A DNA stretch of 47,785 nt from a virus (IMGVR_UViG_3300037458_001078:1-47785); one strand, 5' to 3'. Shown: positions 2,756-47,763, counted from the first letter of the stretch. The notes: generated by a model not told the origin, from the letters alone. Translations and numbers: made by a program.

Positions 2756-2870
2756 ATTTTCCGTATTCTAGTTTTTGGTTTTTCGTTTTCGCAGTCCCCG
2801 GTCATCGGGAACGGGGATACTATGGCTGAGACCGGGGGAAAGGTAAAGTATTATTTTCAACTATTTTTTT
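2753..2870 (-). promoter_or_regulatory. Promoter-leader cassette copy 3
   Basis: Near-identical to 409-519. Confidence 0.8.
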
Positions 2871-2988
2871 GGGACGGTCCAGGGGCTTCCAGACACCGCC
2901 TTGTCCTGTTCAGTTACAACGTCTGGGGTTATCGGGAGTACCGTGTTGCTGTTCCCTTTCCAGACACAGCGCCAGTCATCGCAAACCA

Positions 2989-3111
2989 GCCGAACAGGGC
3001 GCTGCTGCGAATCCGCGCCCCGCTTGACGGCTCGGATGCAGCAGGTTCTATTATGGTTTCGGGGCTTTCAAAGTCTCGGTCGGCGCGGATCGGTGAGCTT
3101 CCGCGTTCGGC
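2989..3111 (+). mobile_element. attC-like site 1
   Basis: R'' GCCGAAC, L'' GCTGCTGC, stem ATCCGCGCC/GGCGCGGAT, L' GGTGAGC, R' GTTCGGC. Confidence 0.8.
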
Positions 3112-3320
3112 GCAACTGGTTCAACCGCTTCCCCGCCGAACACGTCTTCCCAGATTTCAGCGTGTCTCTCGCAGAACCGATGGCCGATGACCGCATCACG
3201 CTTGACTGCCGGGCGTCCGCATGGCGTGCCATAGCAGTCCATGATCCAGCCGCAATGCGCCGAACCAGGCGCTTCAGCCAACGGGCTGGGCAGTTCACTT
3301 TTGGGTGTATCCATAGTCAT
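3051..3320 (-). CDS. Cassette protein, Cys/His-rich (putative Zn-binding)
   Basis: Starts in the attC2 loop (ATGA-coupled) and ends in the attC1 loop; C..C..PCGRPA..FCERH pattern. Confidence 0.7.
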   Translation of the reverse strand: MTMDTPKSELPSPLAEAPGSAHCGWIMDCYGTPCGRPAVKRDAVIGHRFCERHAEIWEDVFGGEAVEPVAPNAEAHRSAPTETLKAPKP

Positions 3321-3356
3321 GGGTGCCCAGCCCGTTGCTGAGCTTGGTTGTTCTGC
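3259..3356 (+). mobile_element. attC-like site 2
   Basis: R'' GCCGAAC, L'' GCTTCAGC, stem CAACGGGCTGGGCA/TGCCCAGCCCGTTG, L' GCTGAGC, R' GTTCTGC. Confidence 0.85.
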
Positions 3357-3511
3357 CGCCGGGCGGAGCGCTTCTTCTTTCCGCGCTTCTTGCCCTTGGG
3401 CCATCCGCCTAGCTTCGCGTTATCACGCGCTGCTTGCGCCTTCGCAGGCGTCGAGATGCTTCCGAGCATCGCGGCGGCATTGATGGGTTTTCCGCAGTGT
3501 GGGCAGTTCAT
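3317..3511 (-). CDS. Small basic protein, probable DNA-binding regulator
   Basis: CPHCGK knuckle plus AAAMLG..AKAQAARDNAKLGGWPK basic motif; ATGA-coupled at both ends. Confidence 0.7.
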   Translation of the reverse strand: MNCPHCGKPINAAAMLGSISTPAKAQAARDNAKLGGWPKGKKRGKKKRSARRQNNQAQQRAGHP

Positions 3512-3765
3512 CGCTTGCATACCTTTTCCCACACTTCGCGCATGATTTTCAGGTTTCCGGCTTCTGCCACGTCTATCAGTTCGCGGGCCTTCTCAACCAA
3601 ATCGAGACGGACGGCCAGCGCACCTTTGCCGTATGTTTTTGTCCCGTGTTCCTCCATGTGTTCACATTCGCGTTCGCACAGAGTTGCCAGCACTCCAGCC
3701 ACGTCACTGAGGGATTGCTGATTCCACTCGGCTTCACTTGGGTCTCCGTATTCACGTAGATTCAT
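3508..3765 (-). CDS. Hypothetical cassette protein
   Basis: ATGA-coupled ORF inside cassette 3. Confidence 0.7.
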   Translation of the reverse strand: MNLREYGDPSEAEWNQQSLSDVAGVLATLCERECEHMEEHGTKTYGKGALAVRLDLVEKARELIDVAEAGNLKIMREVWEKVCKR

Positions 3766-3953
3766 GATGCCACCGTGAGTTTGATTGTTTTTCCGTCAAA
3801 GCTGGCGATATGGCGGAACAGCATTGATTCACCACTGTCCAGTGCGAACCCGTCGCGCTCTACGTCATTCACGCGGCCTTCCGCGATTTCGTCGTTGTAT
3901 TTGTTCAGCACCGTCACCGTCATCCCGACTTCGATTTCGTATTTCGTTTTCAT
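3762..3953 (-). CDS. Hypothetical small beta-rich cassette protein
   Basis: ATG at 3953 lies 6 nt downstream of a -10 box. Confidence 0.7.
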   Translation of the reverse strand: MKTKYEIEVGMTVTVLNKYNDEIAEGRVNDVERDGFALDSGESMLFRHIASFDGKTIKLTVAS

Positions 3954-4087
3954 GGCGCTATCATATACCCATCGCTGGGTATTGCAAGCACTATTTTCAC
4001 TTTTCTTCCGATTGTTTGTAAGTCGTTGACCGGACGGCAGAACCACCGCATGGAGCTAACCGCCGATTGCGCCTCAGGCGAGTTCAT
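3950..4087 (-). CDS. 45-aa bridging ORF (MNSPEAQSAV...YMIAP)
   Basis: Translated by hand; ATGA overlaps at both ends; starts in the attC3 loop. Confidence 0.45.
   Translation of the reverse strand: MNSPEAQSAVSSMRWFCRPVNDLQTIGRKVKIVLAIPSDGYMIAP
3960..3987 (-). promoter_or_regulatory. Sigma70-type leaderless promoter with a palindromic operator in the spacer
   Basis: TTGCAA-16 nt-TATGAT-6 nt-ATG; ATACCCA-N4-TGGGTAT at 3965-3982. Confidence 0.7.
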
Positions 4088-4126
4088 GGCGTTTTTGTCG
4101 GCGGTAGCTCATGCGGAGCGTTCGGC
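4037..4126 (+). mobile_element. attC-like site 3
   Basis: R'' GCAGAAC, GCATGGAGCTAACCGCCGA pairs with TCGGCGGTAGCTCATGC leaving two extrahelical bases, R' GTTCGGC. Confidence 0.85.
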
Positions 4127-4383
4127 GGGTAGTAGCGCAGCCGTGCTTTGACTGCGAACGCCCCACGTTTCATGGCGTCTTCTATTTCTTCGCGTCCGGG
4201 CCAGCCGAGCGCGATGCGCCATGCGTCGGCCTCGGTAGTCAGGTCGCTTCCGGTGACGATGTGGCCGTGAGGAAACACTACTGCCCACATATCGCGGTAG
4301 ATCGCCGAACAAGGCGATGGAGACGAACAGCCGCCCCGCGAGTCAGGCAAATCGGGCGTCGGGATGGGGCGGCTGTCGCTCAT
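4084..4383 (-). CDS. Hypothetical cassette protein
   Basis: ATG in the attC4 arm one nt after the upstream TAA; stop in the attC3 loop. Confidence 0.7.
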   Translation of the reverse strand: MSDSRPIPTPDLPDSRGGCSSPSPCSAIYRDMWAVVFPHGHIVTGSDLTTEADAWRIALGWPGREEIEDAMKRGAFAVKARLRYYPPNAPHELPPTKTP

Positions 4384-4397
4384 CTTAATCGTTCGGT
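4304..4397 (+). mobile_element. attC-like site 4
   Basis: R'' GCCGAAC, GATGGAGACGAACAGCCGCCCC / GGGGCGGCTGTCGCTCATC, R' GTTCGGT. Confidence 0.85.
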
Positions 4398-4666
4398 GGA
4401 AAAGCCTCACTTAGCAATTGCTCCATTCCGCGCCGAAGGTTTCCGAGTCTGGTTGCCCTGCCGTCACGCATTGGCCACAGGTTGCAGGCGAACACTAAGT
4501 CTTCGAGGTCTTGCTTCGAGAGTAGTGCCGCCACACCGCCATCTTCGAGCGCGGTCAGCAGTTTGTGTTCTATCACATCGCGGGTTGTCCGTTCCACCGA
4601 ACAAGGCGCTGGAGACGAACCGGCGGATCGCTGGTCTTCGTTTGGATTTCTGCGTGTTGTAGCCAT
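4385..4666 (-). CDS. Hypothetical cassette protein
   Basis: Start in the attC5 loop, stop inside the attC4 right arm. Confidence 0.7.
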   Translation of the reverse strand: MATTRRNPNEDQRSAGSSPAPCSVERTTRDVIEHKLLTALEDGGVAALLSKQDLEDLVFACNLWPMRDGRATRLGNLRRGMEQLLSEAFPPND

Positions 4667-4703
4667 AGGTTATTCGCGCCGGTCGCTCAGCTTGTCGTTC
4701 GGC
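4596..4703 (+). mobile_element. attC-like site 5
   Basis: R'' ACCGAAC, GCTGGAGACGAACCGGCG / CGCCGGTCGCTCAGC, R' GTTCGGC. Confidence 0.85.
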
Positions 4704-5014
4704 GGATACATCATGCGATGCTGGCGTTCGAGAGATTCACCGAGGCAGTCTCGGAAGTTCTTCCATTCGGTTTCTTTGCCATCGCGCTCGGATATTTGCC
4801 ACGCCGAGCGGCACAGGTCGTTTGCATCTACCAGCGCCGTCGCGAGCCTGCGGAGCGCAAAGGCTGCGTCCATCAGAGGCTTGCCGTAGGCTGCTTCGCC
4901 ATTGTCAGCATGTTGGAGCGCGGACATTTCGAGTTGGTCAGCGAGTTCCATTTCCGCCGAACAAGGGCGCTGCACCGAATCCGCGCCCCGCTTTGCGTTT
5001 GATGTCTTGCTCAT
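4670..5014 (-). CDS. Hypothetical cassette protein (first gene of the array)
   Basis: MSKTSN start at 5014 in the remnant loop of attC6; stop in the attC5 loop. Confidence 0.7.
   Translation of the reverse strand: MSKTSNAKRGADSVQRPCSAEMELADQLEMSALQHADNGEAAYGKPLMDAAFALRRLATALVDANDLCRSAWQISERDGKETEWKNFRDCLGESLERQHRMMYPPNDKLSDRRE
4956..4993 (+). mobile_element. Truncated attC-like site 6 (left arm only)
   Basis: GCCGAACAAGGGCGCTGCACCGAATCCGCGCCCCGCTT, very similar to the left arm of site 1; right arm absent, promoter cassette 4 lies just beyond. Confidence 0.7.
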
Positions 5015-5046
5015 ATTCCACTGTCCACCATCCGGCTGGCACTCTC

Positions 5047-5137
5047 GGTTTTCGTTTTCGCAGTCCCCGGTCATCGGGAACGGGGATACTATGGCTGAGA
5101 CCGGGGGAAAAGTAAAGTATTAGGTTCAACTATTTTT
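5047..5137 (-). promoter_or_regulatory. Promoter cassette copy 4 (diverged, lacks the 3' leader/ATG), facing the attC array
   Basis: Shared core GCAGTCCCCGGTCATCGGGAACGGGGATACTATGGCTGAGACCGGG. Confidence 0.75.
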
Positions 5138-5372
5138 GGGCGGACTATTTTCGGGCGACTTTAGATCGGCAAACCGGTCTCATGAACTTAGCGATCGCGC
5201 GGACCCCGCACACTGATCCTGCCTCGGGAAAAGATTCCTTACCCCTCCCCCGGTACGGGGATGTGCACCCCGCTCTCACAGAGGTCCGCGGGACAACTAT
5301 TTTAGGCACACTACAGCCTGACATCGCCGCCGAGAGGACACCTCCAAACGCCCCCAGACGCCCCTATCCCGA

Positions 5373-5888
5373 ACGCGTGAATTTCACGCGTCAGTCCATC
5401 GCCTCGTTTTATCAACACAAACCCTAACTCGTACTCAAATTCTCAGCAACTTTAACGGTATTTTAAGACCATCGGCTCTCCTTTAACGCAATTCCCAAGG
5501 ACTTCCATTCCGCGATTACTCTGTCGTCTTGTTACATCATGGTAATGCCCAGTAGGGGTGGGGCAAACCCTATATTCTACTACTCCCGCTTAACTCACTT
5601 AACCTAAAAAAGTTGATTCCCCCGGCTTGATCGGCTTTTTAGCGACTTAACCTCAAAAAGTGCTAAACCCCTACACCTGCTAGGCCACGCTTAACGTACT
5701 CGACATCAGACCCCTTTTTTCGGCCGTCCAGCCTCCAGCCAAAACCTGGAGCGCCCTTCTGAGGTTAAGTACGTTAAGTACGTTAAGCGTGGCCTAGCAG
5801 GTGTAGGGGTTTAGGAGTCGGCCTAAACGGCTGAGGTTAAGCCGCCTAAGCCGAGGTTAAGCCGAGGCTACGCGTGAAATTCACGCGT
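5373..5888. other. Noncoding inverted-repeat region: candidate origin or packaging/genome-end site
   Basis: Palindromes ACGCGTGAA-N-TTCACGCGT at 5373-5391 and 5870-5888; perfect 38-bp inverted repeat at 5663-5700/5777-5814; many CTTAAC/GTTAAG motifs. Confidence 0.6.
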
Positions 5889-5932
5889 TTCTTCTTTCCG
5901 CCCCGGTCAACTTCACCCCGCCCAGGCTCCCG

Positions 5933-6019
5933 TCCTGGACCGTCCGGGAACCCGGCGGAGGTCAACTCCTCCCCCAGCTCCCAAAAGCCGTCCAGCGGAC
6001 CCCTGGAGGACGGGAAACC
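5933..6019. repeat. Repeat A, inverted orientation, abutting the terL stop
   Basis: Reverse complement of the repeat A core. Confidence 0.9.
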
Positions 6020-9026: not shown

Positions 9027-9127
9027 TTTCCGTATTCTAGTTTTTGGTTTTCGTTTCGCAGTCCCCGGTCATCGGGAACGGGGATACTATGGCTGAGACC
9101 GGGAGAAAGGTAAAGTATTAGTTTCAA
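9024..9127 (-). promoter_or_regulatory. Promoter-leader cassette copy 5 (between terS and terL)
   Basis: Near-identical to 409-519. Confidence 0.8.
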
Positions 9128-16949: not shown

Positions 16950-17453
16950 TCAAGCCTCACCCGCATCGCACACCTCCGTGACCAGGTGGCGGATTTCGGG
17001 GTCGAGCTGCTTCTCGTGCTTCTTGAACCAGTTCCGCAGGTTCTCCATGACCTCCTGCCCCAGCGGAACGGGCTGCTCGCTGGCCCAGTACAGAAGTTCT
17101 AGCTTGTCCACCTGTTCGACCAGCCAGAGTTCGGCCTGCGTGAGCGCATTCCGGAGGTTCCGAATTGGAATCCCCGCGCTCTCAAGCGCATGCTCCTGGG
17201 CGGACTTGTAGGCCACCCGAAGGTCCTCGTTGGCCCAACCGGCAGTGCAGGGAAGGTCGCCCACCCACCGTTCCCCGAAGTCGTGGAACAGGAGGTAGAT
17301 GATCACCTGCCGCCGAACGTTGGGCTGAATGGAGAGCAGCAACATCAACGCATCGAACGTGTGCTTTCCAACGCTGTAGCTTCCGACGTGAGGTTGCGTG
17401 TGGCAACGCTCCACATGGCTGCACCGACGAAACATCTTAATGGTTTGGTTCAT
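16950..17453 (-). CDS. HD-domain phosphohydrolase (YfbR-like 5'-deoxynucleotidase)
   Basis: V.R.H..SVGKH, HDFGE..VGDLP, DKLE. Confidence 0.85.
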   Translation of the reverse strand: MNQTIKMFRRCSHVERCHTQPHVGSYSVGKHTFDALMLLLSIQPNVRRQVIIYLLFHDFGERWVGDLPCTAGWANEDLRVAYKSAQEHALESAGIPIRNLRNALTQAELWLVEQVDKLELLYWASEQPVPLGQEVMENLRNWFKKHEKQLDPEIRHLVTEVCDAGEA

Positions 17454-18447
17454 AGGAGACTCCGTCATCTGAAGCTCGTTGTTGTTTCTTGAGACGTCGC
17501 TCGAGCCAGGCGACTCCTGCGGCAGCCCAGTCGGAGGCTGCGACCCGTGATCTACAGAACTCGATTGCGGCTTCCAGGCCGTGTGTTTTTCGCATCATGT
17601 AGGCCTCGTGCATTGGGTCTGCGATGTAGTGAAGAAACCACGCGGTTGGCGTTTCCGCCGACCCAGACAACCAGGTCTCAATCTGCTTTAACGGGAGATG
17701 CCCCAGCGGGCGGGTGACGACCTCCTCCAGAGCGTAGGGACAGGACGCCCCAATCTGGGCGGGAAGGACCTCCACCTGACTTAGGGTGTTCTTGTAGATG
17801 TGAAGGTTGTTTGTGAAGTGATAATACCGCCCCAGGGGGACAGACAGCTCGGTGGCAATCCACTCCATCAGCACAGAAAAGTGCACGCAGTTCGCACCGA
17901 GGGCACCCCAAACCAGGTCGTTACTCCGATTGCACACCGTCATGTCGAGCTGACCCTCATGGTTGAGCGCGAAATAGACATGGGTGTTGCAGGGGAGGTC
18001 TTTTGACTGCTGGTGGAGGAGGTCTTCTCGCGGGTCCCACATGCCAAGAACGGCGCGACGGCTGTCCTTGTCTCTTCCCAAGACCTCGACGATCTCGGCT
18101 AACTGGTCCACCCCGAAGTGGCGCCGCCACCGGTTCCCGTAGGCAGCGTTGAACCGAATGCCGTCGTCCGAAAATGACGCCATCCGAGCAACGTATTGCG
18201 TGAGGGAGGCCACATCGTTTTTACCAGCCAGCATCCACAGGGATTCGTAGAGGTGGAAGAACGGGTTGGCATCCCGCTCCGGCCAAAACACCACACGCTC
18301 CCACGGGTTGGTGTATTGCAACAGCACCGGCCCAGGGAGCTGAAGGACATCCCCGTTCCTGGATGGGCGCTCCACGCCGCACTTGAGAACGTGGTTCACC
18401 GCGATGGGCAGCATCTCGTGAGGATTTCTTGCAGTAAGTAAGGTCAT
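17437..18447 (-). CDS. Thymidylate-synthase-family dUMP hydroxymethylase
   Basis: DLPCN catalytic Cys; NRSND..WG..GAN with the dUMP-type Asn; NNLHIY; adjacent to 5-hmdU DNA kinase. Confidence 0.85.
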   Translation of the reverse strand: MTLLTARNPHEMLPIAVNHVLKCGVERPSRNGDVLQLPGPVLLQYTNPWERVVFWPERDANPFFHLYESLWMLAGKNDVASLTQYVARMASFSDDGIRFNAAYGNRWRRHFGVDQLAEIVEVLGRDKDSRRAVLGMWDPREDLLHQQSKDLPCNTHVYFALNHEGQLDMTVCNRSNDLVWGALGANCVHFSVLMEWIATELSVPLGRYYHFTNNLHIYKNTLSQVEVLPAQIGASCPYALEEVVTRPLGHLPLKQIETWLSGSAETPTAWFLHYIADPMHEAYMMRKTHGLEAAIEFCRSRVAASDWAAAGVAWLERRLKKQQRASDDGVSYEPNH

Positions 18448-19313
18448 GTTGCAGGCTTGAAGACTTGTTTTGGGCGACCTTCGCCCAGACGGACACGTTC
18501 GTATTTGTCAAACTCGCAGAGCGTGTGCTCCACGGTTCGCATATCCCAGATCGGCCACTCTGCAGGCCAGGCATCCTCGGAACAAAAGCTCGCGTCCAGG
18601 ATATGCCGCATGTGCTCGCACATGGCTGCCTGTTGGGTGGGAGAATTGCGAAACCTTCCGAGCTTACCGTCCAGGACTCGGCTAAGTCCACGGGCAGCGC
18701 CAGGACCGGCGTTCGCCCAGGTCATCTTGTCCTCGTAAGGGAACAGGTAACTCAGGTCCGTGACCACCTCGTAGCTCATGAACGACCCAATGTAGGGAAA
18801 GGTGCACAGCCACTGATGTTGGTCCTGCAGCCGTTCGTAATGGCGGTAGCCTTCTTGGCGCGACCACTTTTGGAGCGGGTGGAGGATCTGGTCCAGTCCC
18901 TTGATCTTGTTGACACCGAACGGGGTTCGGATCATGTAGGCTCCGGTAACCACCTTGCCGCCCTGCTGGCGCACGGTAGTCAGCGCACGCTTCATGGCGC
19001 GACTATCCCACCCGTCGTTGAGCAGGATGTCCTTGACGGCCGACAGGGTATCGATCCGGTTGATGAACCGTGCAGCTACCGTGATCGGGAGCAGCCTCCA
19101 GTCCACAACGGCGTCGTCGTCAGGCACCAACGGCTTCAGCAGGTTTTGCAGAATCCACTGGGTAACCTTGTCATCGGTGCGGAACACGTTACAGAACCGG
19201 TACTTCTTAAGGATCGGATCTGGCGTCCAGGGGAAGGGTTTTCCCTCAAGTCGCAGCAGGTAAACCCGGTAGCGTTCCCGTGCGTAGGCAAAGAAATCGG
19301 CAAGGTGTTTCAT
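18444..19313 (-). CDS. 5-hmdU DNA kinase (aGPT-Pplase1 / 5-HMUDK)
   Basis: ER..Y..R..G...PWT.DPIL..YRFCNV.R.DD; GPGAARGL; EHTLCEFDKYER. Confidence 0.88.
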   Translation of the reverse strand: MKHLADFFAYARERYRVYLLRLEGKPFPWTPDPILKKYRFCNVFRTDDKVTQWILQNLLKPLVPDDDAVVDWRLLPITVAARFINRIDTLSAVKDILLNDGWDSRAMKRALTTVRQQGGKVVTGAYMIRTPFGVNKIKGLDQILHPLQKWSRQEGYRHYERLQDQHQWLCTFPYIGSFMSYEVVTDLSYLFPYEDKMTWANAGPGAARGLSRVLDGKLGRFRNSPTQQAAMCEHMRHILDASFCSEDAWPAEWPIWDMRTVEHTLCEFDKYERVRLGEGRPKQVFKPAT

Positions 19314-19873
19314 AGGCCGAGCAGTTCTTTGACCTTCGCCAGCGCCTCTTCCCGACTCAGGCTATAGCGCACCACGCCAGGAGCCTCGTTCTGCAGACGC
19401 ACCATAGTGCGCGTCACCTGCCCATACTTACCTCGGGTGTTCTCGGGGTCAACGGGCGTCTCCACGCCACGCGCCTTGCGGCGCAGATTGATGCTGTCCA
19501 CGCAGACGTCAATCGGAGTGGTCAGGGCAATGACATGGGTCTCCCCCACCTCGGGGAGCTTGGCCGTGCGGGAAACCTCAACGCCAATCAGCAGACCCTC
19601 AAACAGCACGTCCCCCTCCTGGGCATGGTGGCGAACCATGTCGAAGATTCCAGTGGTGCCCGTGCTGATGGTGTCCGTGCCGCCACAAGCCGTCTCGTAA
19701 TGGCCGATCACAAATAGAGGCTTCTTCCCAGGAGCGGAGAGCTTGTAGCACAGGGGTCGTTTCCGACCCGGCATGAAGATCGCAGTGCATTCCGGGTAAC
19801 AGTCCATGACGGCACGGACTAGGGTGCTTTTACCGGACCCTGAGGTGCCGCGAATGTTGATGATTTTGTTCAT
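19310..19873 (-). CDS. P-loop kinase associated with thymidine hypermodification
   Basis: IRGTSGSGKST, GHY...CGGTD, LFEG. Confidence 0.8.
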   Translation of the reverse strand: MNKIINIRGTSGSGKSTLVRAVMDCYPECTAIFMPGRKRPLCYKLSAPGKKPLFVIGHYETACGGTDTISTGTTGIFDMVRHHAQEGDVLFEGLLIGVEVSRTAKLPEVGETHVIALTTPIDVCVDSINLRRKARGVETPVDPENTRGKYGQVTRTMVRLQNEAPGVVRYSLSREEALAKVKELLGL

Positions 19874-20100
19874 AGCTTTGTTATTGTTTCGTGTGTGATG
19901 TTTAGGACCAGACGAAAGTCGGAGAGACGCACACCAGATAGGGCTATGGTCGCACCAACCTTCAAAAGAACTTCCCCTTCCGTAACGCTTTCTACCAGCC
20001 GCACCGCCTTGGAGACCCCGTCCATGAAGACCAGGTTGCCGTTGAGTTCCGCTGCCTTCGCAGCGGCGCGACGCAAAAGTAGAATCTCAGGCCTAACCAC
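19870..20100 (-). CDS. Hypothetical protein
   Basis: Coupled ORF within the modification operon. Confidence 0.6.
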   Translation of the reverse strand: MVRPEILLLRRAAAKAAELNGNLVFMDGVSKAVRLVESVTEGEVLLKVGATIALSGVRLSDFRLVLNITHETITKL

Positions 20101-21823
20101 GGTTGATGACCTCCATCATAAAGGACTTCAACGAGTGGCGACCCTGGAGCACCGCGTCAACCGCCCGGTAGGCTTCCCGAAGGCTCACTTTATTCTGCAG
20201 CGCATACAGCAGCACGCAGAAATACACAGATCGGGTTCGGCCTGCCTCGCACAAGACCAGCACCCGGCTGCCCGGGATCGTCGCTAGGTGGTTAACCACA
20301 AAGTGCGCGAGCTGTTGGATGTCCGGCTCCAGCATACCACGTGAATCGGGTCGCGGGATATAGTGGTAGGTCACGCCCCAGCATTCCGAGAAATCATGGT
20401 CAAGTTTCGACCAGAAGTTCACCACCATGGTAATGCCGTGGCGTTGAAAGAATTCGCGTTTATCCTCGAGAGACCAGCTGAGGATCTGGCCACGCTGCAG
20501 GATAGTCGGGGTGATTACGTTCACCCCGCCGCGACGAGCCGGTTTCCCGTCCTCCAGAGGTCCGCTGGACGGCTTTTGGGAGCCGGGGGAGGAGTTGACC
20601 TCCGCTGGGTTCCCGGACGGTCCTGGAGGGGTTCCAGGGCTCCCGGACGCCGGTTTCGGGCCCACCGGGGCAGGGGAAGCCGGTTTCCCGTCCTCCAGAG
20701 GTCCGCTGGACGGCTTTTGGGAGCCGGGGGAGGAGTTGACCTCCGCTGGGTTCCCGGACGCATCGTTACGGGGAACCGGGTTGGCCCAACAGTTCTGACT
20801 GAGGGTCATGTTGTAGTCATACAGCAGGTCCGACCACACATAGCCATGGTCGCGCAACAGCGGGGTTAGATCCCAGCGCGTACCACACCAACGGTCCTGG
20901 TGTTCGCCCAGAACGGGGGCGGGAAACAGACTGGCCCGAGCCTTCCAGAAGTCAGCCTCGGAGAAGTCTGAATTCGCCAACAAGGGTGCCGTCTTCTTCA
21001 ACAGCAACGGCTCCTGGTCGATAGTCCATCCCACATACTGCCGGCGGTCCTCAAACGCATCACGGTATTCACAGAGCATGGCTGCGAAGATGTAGAAGGT
21101 GCACCCTGGCACCTCCGCAGCAATCCGACGCGCCATCTCAGAGGCCAGCTCGTTCGTTCGCTCCGACGCATCCCGTGTATCCGTGAGGTAGGTGTCCGCG
21201 TTGGCTGGGTCCAGATACACCAGACACTTTCTCGGAGACCACGCACCCATGGCGCGGATGTCATACAGCTCTGCGGGAATGCCCACAAAACGGCGGAGTC
21301 CTTCGACCACCCGGATGCTGATGTACCGACCAAAGAACTGCACAGCGGTCACTTCCTCCCACACGGCATCGTAGTAGGCGGTTCGGCTTTTGTCCCGAGG
21401 CAGCTCTCGGATTCGCTGGTATCCGTTCCGCAGGAAGTCCACGTAGGAACGCAGGCAGGTCACGTAGTTCTCCACAGAACGCACACAGCGGCGTTCTCGG
21501 CGGGTGCCCGCCAGGATGCCCGGCCAGTTCTTCCGCACCCAGGCTTCCATGGGGGCGAAGTCCTGCAACACCGCCTCGGCAGAGAACTTGCTCCAGCAGG
21601 CAGCCCCAACCGCAAATGCGTAGGGGATCGCGTAGCACCCAATCCGCCACACCGTCTCCAGCTCGGAGCAGTTGTCAGATTTGGCAACGTGGCCCACCAT
21701 CTGCAGGTGTGGACTGGGCTCGGACACCTGGAGCTTCTTGCGGGTGAAGTCAACGAACTTCTCCCAGTGCCATTCCGCGGGGTGCTCCGAAATCCCGTCG
21801 GGGAGTGTGTGGTGCTCAGGCAT
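20093..21823 (-). CDS. aGPT-Pplase2/amino acid:DNA transferase-like domain fused to a DSP/PTP-type phosphatase via a repeat-A linker
   Basis: RRERR, FFGRY, LCEY..YVG motifs of the HhH-glycosylase-like transferase; C-terminal [12 protein letters not shown] (CX5R). Confidence 0.7.
20539..20760. repeat. Two tandem in-frame copies of repeat A (141-nt period)
   Basis: [26 protein letters not shown] occurs twice in the protein. Confidence 0.95.
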
Positions 21824-22898
21824 TGTCTTGGATGAAGTTCTCAACCGCCAGGCGACACTCGCTGTCACGAAACTGCTGTGGCGGTGTCTTAAAGAAGTAA
21901 CTGCTGGGCCCCGTGATGGCACCGGAAAGTCCCCGGTCCAGGGCCAGTTTGGCGCAACGGATGGCGTCAATCACCACCCCGGCGCTGTTTGGGCTGTCCC
22001 ACACCTCTAGGTGGGCAGTCACCAAGAGTGGCACATTCCCAAATGTGGTACCCTCAATTCGGATCTCGCAGAACTTGCGATCCCGCAGAAACGGAATGTG
22101 GTCGGAGGGACCCACATGGACATTCTCCTCCGGAACTGGGTAGGGGAGCATGCTGGTCACCGCCCCGGTCTTACTGACCTTCTTGGACTCCAGACGTTCC
22201 CGCTCCAGCATGTTGAGGAAGTCCGTGTTGCCGCCGAAATTGAGCTGGTAGGTGCGATCTACGCGCACCCCACGGTCGGCGAAAAGTGTGGCCAGCGTAC
22301 GGTGCACAATAGTGGCGCCAACCTGGGACTTGATATCATCGCCCAGGACGGGGACGCTGGCTTGCGAAAACCGTTTCTGCCAGTACGGGCTGCTGGCGAT
22401 AAACACCGGGATGCAGTTGACCAGCGCGCATTCCGCAGCCAGGATCTGCTCCACATACCACTTGGTGGCCATCTCGCTCCCGACGGGCAGATAGTTGACC
22501 ACCACGTCCACATGGTGGTCTCGGAGAGCCTGCGTGATGTCTGCGGTTTCCCCCGGTGCGATGGGGATCAACGGCTCGCAATACTTCCCGACTCCATCGT
22601 GGCGCATGCCCCGGATCACGGGTGCGCCCAGGAGGGGCACGTTGGGCTCAAAGACCAGCGTGTTGTTGGGCTGTGCGAAGATGGCCTCGCTGACATCTCG
22701 CCCGACCTTGCGGCCGTCAATGTCAATGCCGAGCACCACCTCGATGTCCTGGATGGCGTAGCCACCGAGAACGTTGTGCATCAAACCGGGGACGCGTTCG
22801 TCCTTCTCGGTAATGTCCTTGTAGAAGGTCAGGCCTTGCACAAGGGAGGAGGCACAATTCCCAACCCCGAGAATTGCGAGCCGAAGTTTCTTTTTCAT
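21816..22898 (-). CDS. ino1: myo-inositol-1-phosphate synthase
   Basis: [67 protein letters not shown]. Confidence 0.95.
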
Positions 22899-22934: not shown

Positions 22935-23414
22935 TCAGTCCACAAAGGCGAAGATTTTGTCGCCGTCTTGGCGCAGGCCGTAGCCGTGCCAGGAGTTGCT
23001 GTTGAGGATGTGGTGGCGGAGCTTCTCCGCGTATTCAGGCACCTCCTTCTTGAGCTCCTCGAGGGTGGCTCCCTTCAGCATCGCCGTGATCAGACGCCCA
23101 CGCGGGCTAGTGGTGCGAAACGGGCGCTGCGTGGCCAGCGGCTTGCGGTTGAAGATATTGGCCTCCTTCTCAGCCTTCTCGGCCTTGCTCTCGGCCTTGC
23201 TCTCGGCCTTGCTCTCGGCCTTGCTCTCGGCCTTGCTCTCGGCCTTGCTCTCTGCGATCTTCTTCGCAGTCTCCTGAGCCTGAAGGATGCGCTTGATGGC
23301 GACGTCCTTGGAGGGGAACTTCTTGACGGTCTCACCGGTGAGGTCGTTGTAGATGGCGGTCAACTCCGCACCGGTCTTTTGGAAGAGGTCCGCCGCACTG
23401 TAGGTCGTATTCAT
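22935..23414 (-). CDS. Lys/Ala/Glu-rich putative DNA-binding protein
   Basis: Start MNTTYS at 23414; (AESK)6 linker between two small domains. Confidence 0.7.
   Translation of the reverse strand: MNTTYSAADLFQKTGAELTAIYNDLTGETVKKFPSKDVAIKRILQAQETAKKIAESKAESKAESKAESKAESKAESKAEKAEKEANIFNRKPLATQRPFRTTSPRGRLITAMLKGATLEELKKEVPEYAEKLRHHILNSNSWHGYGLRQDGDKIFAFVD
23181..23252. repeat. 12-bp tandem repeat x6 (GGCCTTGCTCTC) encoding AESK
   Basis: Direct reading. Confidence 0.95.
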
Positions 23415-23514
23415 AGTCGTGATCTTGATTTTGTTTGTTTCTTTTCGGGCGTCGTTACCCGCCACGCCCGGTTCGGGTCGGCCGAACCGGGCGACGCGGA
23501 TCACGAATTCTGAC

Positions 23515-23703: not shown

Positions 23704-23813
23704 TTTCAATATTCTAGTTTTTGGTTTTTCGTTTCGCAGTCCCCGGTCATCGGGAACGGGGATACTATGGCTGAGACCGGGAGAAAGGTAAAGTATTATT
23801 TTCAACTATTTTT
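23701..23813 (-). promoter_or_regulatory. Promoter-leader cassette copy 6 (heads the ino1/modification operon)
   Basis: Near-identical to 409-519. Confidence 0.8.
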
Positions 23814-24041
23814 GGGTGGCCTAATCTTCTTGTCAGGCGAGGCAATTCTCAGCGCCGCATTCAGAAGGGTTGCCGCAACCTCCGCAGAATACTCGTTGTT
23901 CGTGTCGGAGTGGAGAATGCTTTGGCATTCCGCATGCAGGAGCTGCCGCTGCTCCGCCGATAGCCTGCCTACGATTCGCAGGGCTTCGGGAAGTAGGGTT
24001 GTTCGTGCGAGGTGTTTTAGGTGGCTGATCGCGGGGCTCAT
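23802..24041 (-). CDS. Hypothetical protein
   Basis: ATGA-coupled to the helicase stop. Confidence 0.6.
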   Translation of the reverse strand: MSPAISHLKHLARTTLLPEALRIVGRLSAEQRQLLHAECQSILHSDTNNEYSAEVAATLLNAALRIASPDKKIRPPKNS

Positions 24042-29506: not shown

Positions 29507-29617
29507 ATGTTCCGTATTCTAATTTTGGTTTTTCGTTTTCGCAGTCCCCGGTCATCGGGAACGGGGATACTATGGCTGAGACCGGGAGAAAGGTAAAGTA
29601 TTATTTTCAACTATTTT
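29504..29617 (-). promoter_or_regulatory. Promoter-leader cassette copy 7 (heads the replication operon)
   Basis: Near-identical to 409-519. Confidence 0.8.
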
Positions 29618-47658: not shown

Positions 47659-47763
47659 CCGGCTCCCCGTCCTCCAGGGGTCCGCTGGACGGCTTTCGGG
47701 AGCCGGGGGAGGAGTTGACCTCCGCTGGGTTCCCGGACGGTCCTGGAGGGGTTCCAGGGCTCT
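47659..47763. repeat. Repeat A (same copy as the start of the window)
   Basis: Identity to 1745-1848. Confidence 0.95.

Follow-up and report, generated by a model that had tools for sequence, protein, structure and literature searches.

Reversed genes with proposed stop-start attC connectors in an integrase-less attC array of a phage genome

We describe an array of integron-type attC sites in a phage genome, IMGVR_UViG_3300037458_001078; the window that was analysed is the whole virus record of 47,785 bases, which carries a terminal-repeat classification and a CheckV completeness of 75%. By every feature testable here the array is an integrase-less attC cluster, yet it does not consist of canonical cassettes: its genes lie on the strand opposite to that used in a normal cassette, and most of its attC sites hold the stop codon of one gene next to the start codon of another. 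The array was probably built by the integron integrase IntI recombining at G|TT, with the integrase likely supplied from outside the phage. According to Qi et al. 2023 (PMC9892861), 17 integrase-less attC clusters were identified in 10,705 phages, including virulent phages, and 5/6 phage attC sites recombine with attI1 under IntI1, and a review (PMC11389934) regards integrase-less clusters as using an integrase in trans. That phages carry such clusters is therefore already published; what differs here is the reversed polarity, with attC sites as probable stop-start connectors.

The cluster was called with a purpose-built covariance model, not with IntegronFinder. The model was made from 21 bacterial attC sites, 16 from a Verrucomicrobia bin (G001) and five from a contig (L029), both of which were reached by a pattern taken from site 5 of the array, and the two sites matching that pattern were excluded from the model alignment. 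With filters off, a search of the whole window returned exactly five matches (E values of 7.4e-9 to 1.1e-5), all on the plus strand, and no further match up to E = 1; half-site 6 was not matched (table 1). The five full attC-like sites and one half-site in a single orientation that an earlier note on this DNA had described were recovered at the same positions, all five full sites by the covariance model. A scan of positions 2880-5130 for generic attC anatomy found four of the five sites, where 300 dinucleotide shuffles gave 0.09 sites on average and never more than 2; it missed site 1, whose L boxes pair at only 5/7 positions. All five sites have the order R''-spacer-L''-loop-L'-spacer-R' with an AAC/GTT core, and their R boxes are of the GCCGAAC/GTTCGGC type that is found in the G001 arrays. 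In the covariance alignments the extrahelical bases are located on the L'' arm, as in the bacterial sites, which identifies the plus strand as the attC top strand. On folding of the bottom strands the L stems form in sites 2-5 and the minimum-energy fold of site 1 is not a canonical hairpin; the top strands fold as well as or slightly better than the bottom strands at four of the five sites. In metagenome loci L007 and L010 there is a complete site whose left half resembles the half-site at 80%. With five sites in 1.7 kb, the array falls within the CALIN (integrase-less attC cluster) definition of at least two clustered attC sites.

Early regions of phages are mosaic, and other gene units bounded by repeats exist in the same genome, so the hairpins could in principle be terminators or repeats between genes that homologous recombination of the phage has shuffled, their likeness to attC being incidental. 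We regard this as extremely improbable, given that all five sites are recognised by a model made from bacterial attC sites, that members of this site family are also found in bacterial arrays and beside an IntI gene in another virus record (G003, see later), that a terminator scan gave three matches against 3.8 expected by chance, and that breakpoints fall at G|TT.

The ends of the cassettes carry the footprint of cassette integration. As the earlier note had observed, the flank of each R'' box is complementary to that of the preceding R' box, over 10, 9, 8, 11, and 10 nucleotides (nt) compared with a mean of 5.85 nt for non-cognate pairs, and among 120 permutations of the sites the true order ranks first; the 8-nt pair does not single out its partner, as the R' at 4120 pairs over 9 nt with the flank at 4956 and over 8 nt with that at 3259. 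The same footprint is present in 35 bacterial cassettes with a mean of 8.6 nt, two cassette pairs with site ends that could not be located having been left out of this comparison and of the polarity comparison described later. Because the pairing is equal in bacterial cassettes, it marks ordinary cassettes and is silent on the place of assembly.

The genes of the array are encoded on the minus strand and are antisense to the attC top strand, which the earlier note had missed. In a canonical cassette the gene is on the top strand upstream of its attC; here all open reading frames (ORFs) of the cassettes that are supported by homologues are on the bottom strand. When polarity was assigned from the longest ORF, three of the five window cassettes were antisense and two were unclear, and homologue alignments support a minus-strand ORF in both of the latter. 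The same procedure gave 24 sense, 1 antisense, and 10 unclear among the 35 bacterial cassettes, versus 20 antisense, 6 sense, and 8 unclear among 34 cassettes of other phage-type loci, which were chosen by means of ORF4 or a site pattern and are mostly short contigs without a phage marker. The last ORF of all five window cassettes crosses R' in one frame, with AAC read as a codon, and stops inside the neighbouring attC. At four of the five sites the next start codon is within 6 nt of this stop, the two overlapping as ATGA (sites 2 and 3) or being separated by 1 nt (site 4) or 3 nt (site 5), and site 1 has no start. An ATG within -4 to +8 of the in-frame stop is likewise found at 22/34 junctions of the other phage-type loci and at 4/35 bacterial junctions.

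This layout separates the array from the known systems that it resembles. With the bacterial arrays (sedentary chromosomal integrons; G001) it shares attC family and anatomy, cassette-end complementarity, and probable crossover at G|TT, whereas the bacterial cassettes are mostly sense to the top strand and rarely have a stop-start pair in attC. The phages of Qi et al. have the same combination of an attC cluster, no intI, and small genes between sites; however, the genes of TJE1, the main example of that study and the one phage of it analysed here, are on the top strand in normal polarity, unlike the present antisense genes that start in their own attC, stop in that of the neighbour, and have a phage promoter-like unit at the opposite end. 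Inverted insertion through the top strand (PMC5027507) turns a gene round along with its site, whereas in the present array the orientation of the sites is uniform and the genes alone are reversed. The attI1 ORF-11 coupling of class 1 integrons (PMC8876359) has in common with the array a frame that crosses the recombination point, a stop from the neighbouring cassette, and, as predicted here, coupled translation, but it is known from the top strand, for attI1 and the cassette that comes first, and not, as here, from every attC on the bottom strand. No publication describing the reversed cassette layout was found in the literature searched, where most subscription papers were not covered. Phage-type attC sites with a stop-start pair, together with one antisense cassette, were also seen within otherwise normal bacterial arrays (L029:337-753 and L028:2961-3322), a hint of exchange between bacterial and phage cassettes. 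Although L029 bears the label Klebsiella, it has attC sites of the Verrucomicrobia family, and no IntI in the bin of L029 exceeds the cut-off.

To follow the cassettes beyond this genome, we compared the homologues of their genes, leaving out 28/59 ORF4 rows (the weakest), 1/28 non-self ORF3 rows, and 3/10 non-self ORF1 rows (long repetitive proteins). In homologues of ORF1, ORF3, ORF4, and ORF5 the body is conserved between the R''-coded and R'-coded residues, and divergence sets in after the residues PN. Of 20 metagenome loci with an ORF4 match, the four with flanking sites were aligned as DNA and 16 were left out; in all four the identity stops at the R' crossover, with a different neighbour each time. 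ORF4 is located at metagenome locus L010 beside a portal gene of the SU10/P22-like type, which is not the portal type of this phage, and an unrelated phage thus carries the ORF4 cassette. An independent estuary run yielded a 2,507-base contig that matches the array from 3350, the G of GTT, into cassette 2, behind a different attC right arm. When protein pairs with body identities of 90% or more were compared, which are not independent of each other, the leader coded by the gene's own attC is shared in 11/49 and the tail coded by the neighbour's attC in 1/44, the direction expected of a crossover at G|TT in R'.

These comparisons also bear on the opposite polarity of exchange, in which recombination would occur on the other strand at R'' and the mobile unit would be a gene followed by the site that holds its stop. 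Recombination of the top strand at R'' is documented (PMC5027507), leaders vary widely among homologues, and one wastewater contig departs from the ORF4 match at 4608, just past R'' and the spacer. However, close pairs share tails far less often than leaders, identity on the R'' side runs on through the spacer and L'' before breaking and stops sharply at R', the extrahelical bases are placed as in bacterial sites, and the intI gene of G003 is at the canonical end of its array. Crossover at R'' consequently appears to us quite improbable.

No integrase was found with the array, in a record rated 75% complete. A six-frame search of the window with PF00589 gave 0 tyrosine recombinase candidates, the same search being positive in 14/14 control genomes, and neither an integrase nor a serine recombinase was present among 55 ORFs searched against PHROGs or 27 ORFs searched against NCBIfam, in line with the earlier statement that the genome has no recognisable intI or other recombinase. 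A PHROGs match to a transposase at 22935-23504 (E = 7e-4) was rejected; the same ORF matches low-complexity TolA models. A complete integron, with attI, Pc, and intI upstream of the array, is not present in the phage. Two candidate outside sources were identified. In the Verrucomicrobia bin G001 the attC family of the phage occurs together with two IntI genes over the curated cut-off, which makes a Verrucomicrobia host with an integron plausible. The virus record G003 (56.8 kb), found with the pattern of sites 4 and 5, has a reversed array that adjoins an IntI gene of its own (280.5 bits against the TIGR02249 cut-off of 265), the product being 41% identical to one of the G001 IntI proteins. 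This intI is located at the canonical array end next to a short AT-rich attI-like stretch, and the ends of the first cassette are complementary over 10 nt. The enzyme can thus be phage-borne in this array family, and the present phage may be an integrase-less derivative or a recipient. The idea that a host integron integrase serves the phage consequently stands insofar as the attC family occurs in an IntI-bearing bacterium, but the host need not be the supplier, since the phage record G003 has its own IntI. G003 may be a prophage, as suggested by a second integrase and a further attC at the left end of the record. The G003 array (G003:C1:16128-23151; L002, L037, and L038) has at least 13 attC-like sites and mostly antisense genes, including those for two DNA methyltransferases, and the cassette genes read towards intI and are co-oriented with it. 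A large protein of locus L006 had no match in Pfam, PHROGs, or PDB that would mark the locus as phage.

Both end sites of the array are damaged, site 1 having a weak L box and site 6 having lost its right arm. A promoter/leader unit at 5047-5139 faces the array from the top-strand downstream end, and its usual leader end is replaced by attC-derived sequence, namely the truncated site 6. The unit, of about 110 bases, is present in seven near-identical copies (412-522, 1596-1706, 2758-2868, 5047-5139, 9027-9127, 23704-23815, and 29510-29617), each directly preceding a minus-strand gene and four of them in tandem modules within the first 5.2 kb; its promoter function is predicted from this position before genes. 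T4-type PeSL elements are repeat-bounded mobile promoter modules of phage hyperplastic regions and are thought to be shuffled by homologous recombination between repeats. The present array is similar to these modules in that it sits within one of several repeated promoter units and differs in that its units are bounded by attC crossover points. RNA-library contigs cover portions of the array in three runs and are uninformative on transcription or strand.

It could be that the array was assembled in a host or in another phage that has IntI, G003 being an example, and entered this phage whole, by phage recombination behind the promoter unit, so that the integrase is no longer met and the attC sites persist as coupling sequences. 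The fusion of half-site 6 to the promoter leader without a right arm, the decay of site 1, the lack of a recognisable attI or of any rearranged form, and the existence of attC-less homologues with R''-like relics would all agree with such a block capture, and the repeated promoter units and a dispersed repeat could mediate block exchange. Against it, sites 2-5 retain the full R, L, and extrahelical anatomy and exact cassette ends of 8-11 nt; moreover, it implies the same IntI origin as our preferred explanation and differs from it only in the time and place of recombination. We consider block capture unlikely, although by no means negligible.

Several observations weigh against construction by IntI at G|TT with an integrase from outside. 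No excised or rearranged form joined at G|TT was detected in three DNA runs, which may be the source sample and whose contigs would not retain rare forms; in two of these runs a single unitig spans 2839-5078. A joint 3284-4682 was rejected as a rearrangement: one of its sides measures 23 nt, it does not fall at G|TT, and it was read as another organism's attC. The loop of the gene's own attC varies among homologues (17 leader families in 24 ORF4 proteins), which G|TT alone does not explain; a second process must replace attC loops. Eight ORF4 homologue loci have no R' box or attC match, and ORF4 thus also lives outside cassettes. No close relative was found in which cassette order could be compared, the host is assigned solely from the likeness of its attC sites, and the phage-type comparison loci were selected as described earlier. 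The earlier proposal that the phage acquires and shuffles genes through the array accordingly survives in part: homologous cassettes do change neighbours at G|TT, but shuffling at present found no support, no G|TT joint having been seen and both end sites being damaged. Acquisition of the genes from host arrays likewise found no support, ORF4 being found in 0/401 genomes of the G001 phylum in a search made without a positive control.

In the explanation that we favour, IntI would fold and cut the bottom strand at R', as described for folded attC (PMC5027507), and would insert or excise a gene body together with the attC containing its start. The stop would come from the attC of the neighbour, so cassette order could change without breaking translation; each attC would act as a stop-start connector and any order would yield a translationally coupled operon, transcribed from the phage early promoter at the far end. 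The integrase would come from an integron-bearing host, probably one of the Verrucomicrobia, or from a co-infecting IntI-bearing phage, and the cassettes would be phage accessory genes traded among unrelated phages. Part of the array has probably become fixed in this phage, given the decay of site 1 and the loss of the crossover arm from the site on the promoter side; the inner cassettes would remain excisable. The reversal of the genes might have two consequences. The genes would stay silent from the host's Pc, and the recombining strand would become the coding strand, which under co-directional replication would be the lagging-strand template. Folding of attC is favoured on the lagging-strand template.

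Table 1. Positions of attC sites, cassette genes, and predicted promoter elements in the array (ORF, open reading frame; aa, amino acids; E, covariance-model E value)
Feature	Position	Strand	Description
Remnant left of site 1	2880-2988	none	No matching R' and no attI recognised (by eye)
attC site 1	2989-3111	+	E 1.1e-5; weakest, L boxes pair 5/7; contains ORF1 stop, no following ATG
ORF1	3051-3320	-	89 aa, Cys/His pattern; cassette body 3105-3265
attC site 2	3259-3356	+	E 4.9e-6; ATGA start/stop overlap
Cassette 2 body	3350-4043	-	Four ORFs and an internal promoter-like element
Cassette 2, last ORF	3317-3520	-	67 aa, CxxC and basic tail
Cassette 2, ORF	3508-3765	-	85 aa
Cassette 2, ORF	3762-3953	-	63 aa
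Cassette 2, first ORF	3950-4087	-	45 aa, begins from site 3
Cassette 2, predicted internal sigma-70-like promoter	3987-3960	-	
attC site 3	4037-4126	+	E 1e-8; ATGA start/stop overlap
ORF3	4084-4383	-	99 aa; cassette body 4120-4310
attC site 4	4304-4397	+	E 7.4e-9; bottom strand TAA-G-ATG
ORF4	4385-4666	-	93 aa, predicted three-helix body; cassette body 4391-4602
attC site 5	4596-4703	+	E 1.2e-6; bottom strand stop TAA, 3 nt, ATG
ORF5	4670-5014	-	114 aa; cassette body 4697-4962; stop within site 5
attC half-site 6	4956-5025	+	Left half only (R''-spacer-L''-loop), without the L' and R' of a right arm; contains ORF5 start codon
Promoter/leader unit copy	5047-5139	-	One of 7 genome copies; predicted early promoter reading into the array

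The cassette genes match no PHROGs family, their Pfam matches are all sub-threshold, including zinc-ribbon matches in cassette 2 that are under cut-off, and their Atlas scores are at most 0.80. The predicted structures of ORF3 and ORF4 had no fold match at E of 0.001 or less. The predicted fold of ORF3 is limited to residues 28-84, and the attC-coded leaders of both proteins are of low confidence, which agrees with a layout in which stops and starts are in attC. In comparison with runs X12 and X13, cassette 2 looks like a family with a constant internal promoter and end gene and an exchangeable middle gene, 3517-3761 being swapped for 204 other bases in one contig.

The gene content of the phage includes terminase, portal, DNA polymerase, primase, helicases, and base-modification enzymes, almost all encoded on the minus strand. 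The base-modification cluster (17437-22898) encodes a member of the thymidylate synthase family, a 5-hydroxymethyldeoxyuridine DNA kinase helical domain, an amino acid:DNA transferase fused to a phosphatase-like domain, and an inositol-phosphate synthase. The DNA of the array had 0 matches among 50,697 named phage records, the best matches of the terminase are less than 30% identical, and the single near match to the phage is an identical 27-kb contig that ends at 5198, before the array. Among viral contigs the ORF4 and ORF5 alignments had no matches and the ORF3 alignment found three loci, all without an attC match; the promoter-unit pattern had 0 matches in metagenome contigs. The runs richest in the array are from wetland samples and may include the source sample of the phage. 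A dispersed repeat of about 100 bases is present in 14 places and in both orientations with 83-100% identity (e.g., 564-657, 1747-1846, 5920-6014, 20546-20640, and 47661-47760), and since the 82-base terminal overlap of the record falls inside it, the terminal-repeat call may stem from this repeat. A perfect 38-base inverted repeat in a gene-free stretch with TTAAC-rich surroundings (5663-5814) is a possible origin or processing site. Rfam gave four weak matches in the window, all under the gathering score and none within the array.

Integrons are usually treated as bacterial systems with one gene polarity, and the attC clusters of phages have been read as passengers. We tentatively propose, as a reading with slightly less than even prospects, that phages run a parallel integron economy, in which back-to-front cassettes with attC sites as stop-start connectors are silent from the host Pc, expressed from phage promoters, and traded among unrelated phages by host or phage-borne IntI. 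If so, a reversed, coupled layout common to unrelated phages, and linked in one record to a phage IntI, would mean that phages have adapted the integron system for their accessory genes; the reversal would, in addition, make the coding strand the one that recombines and so promote hairpin extrusion in the phage, and cassette genesis could be traced in such arrays through the repeated exchange of the attC loop that belongs to a gene. The present finding supplies concrete sites, cassettes, two integrases, and gene families in which one can follow how attC sites become attached to genes.
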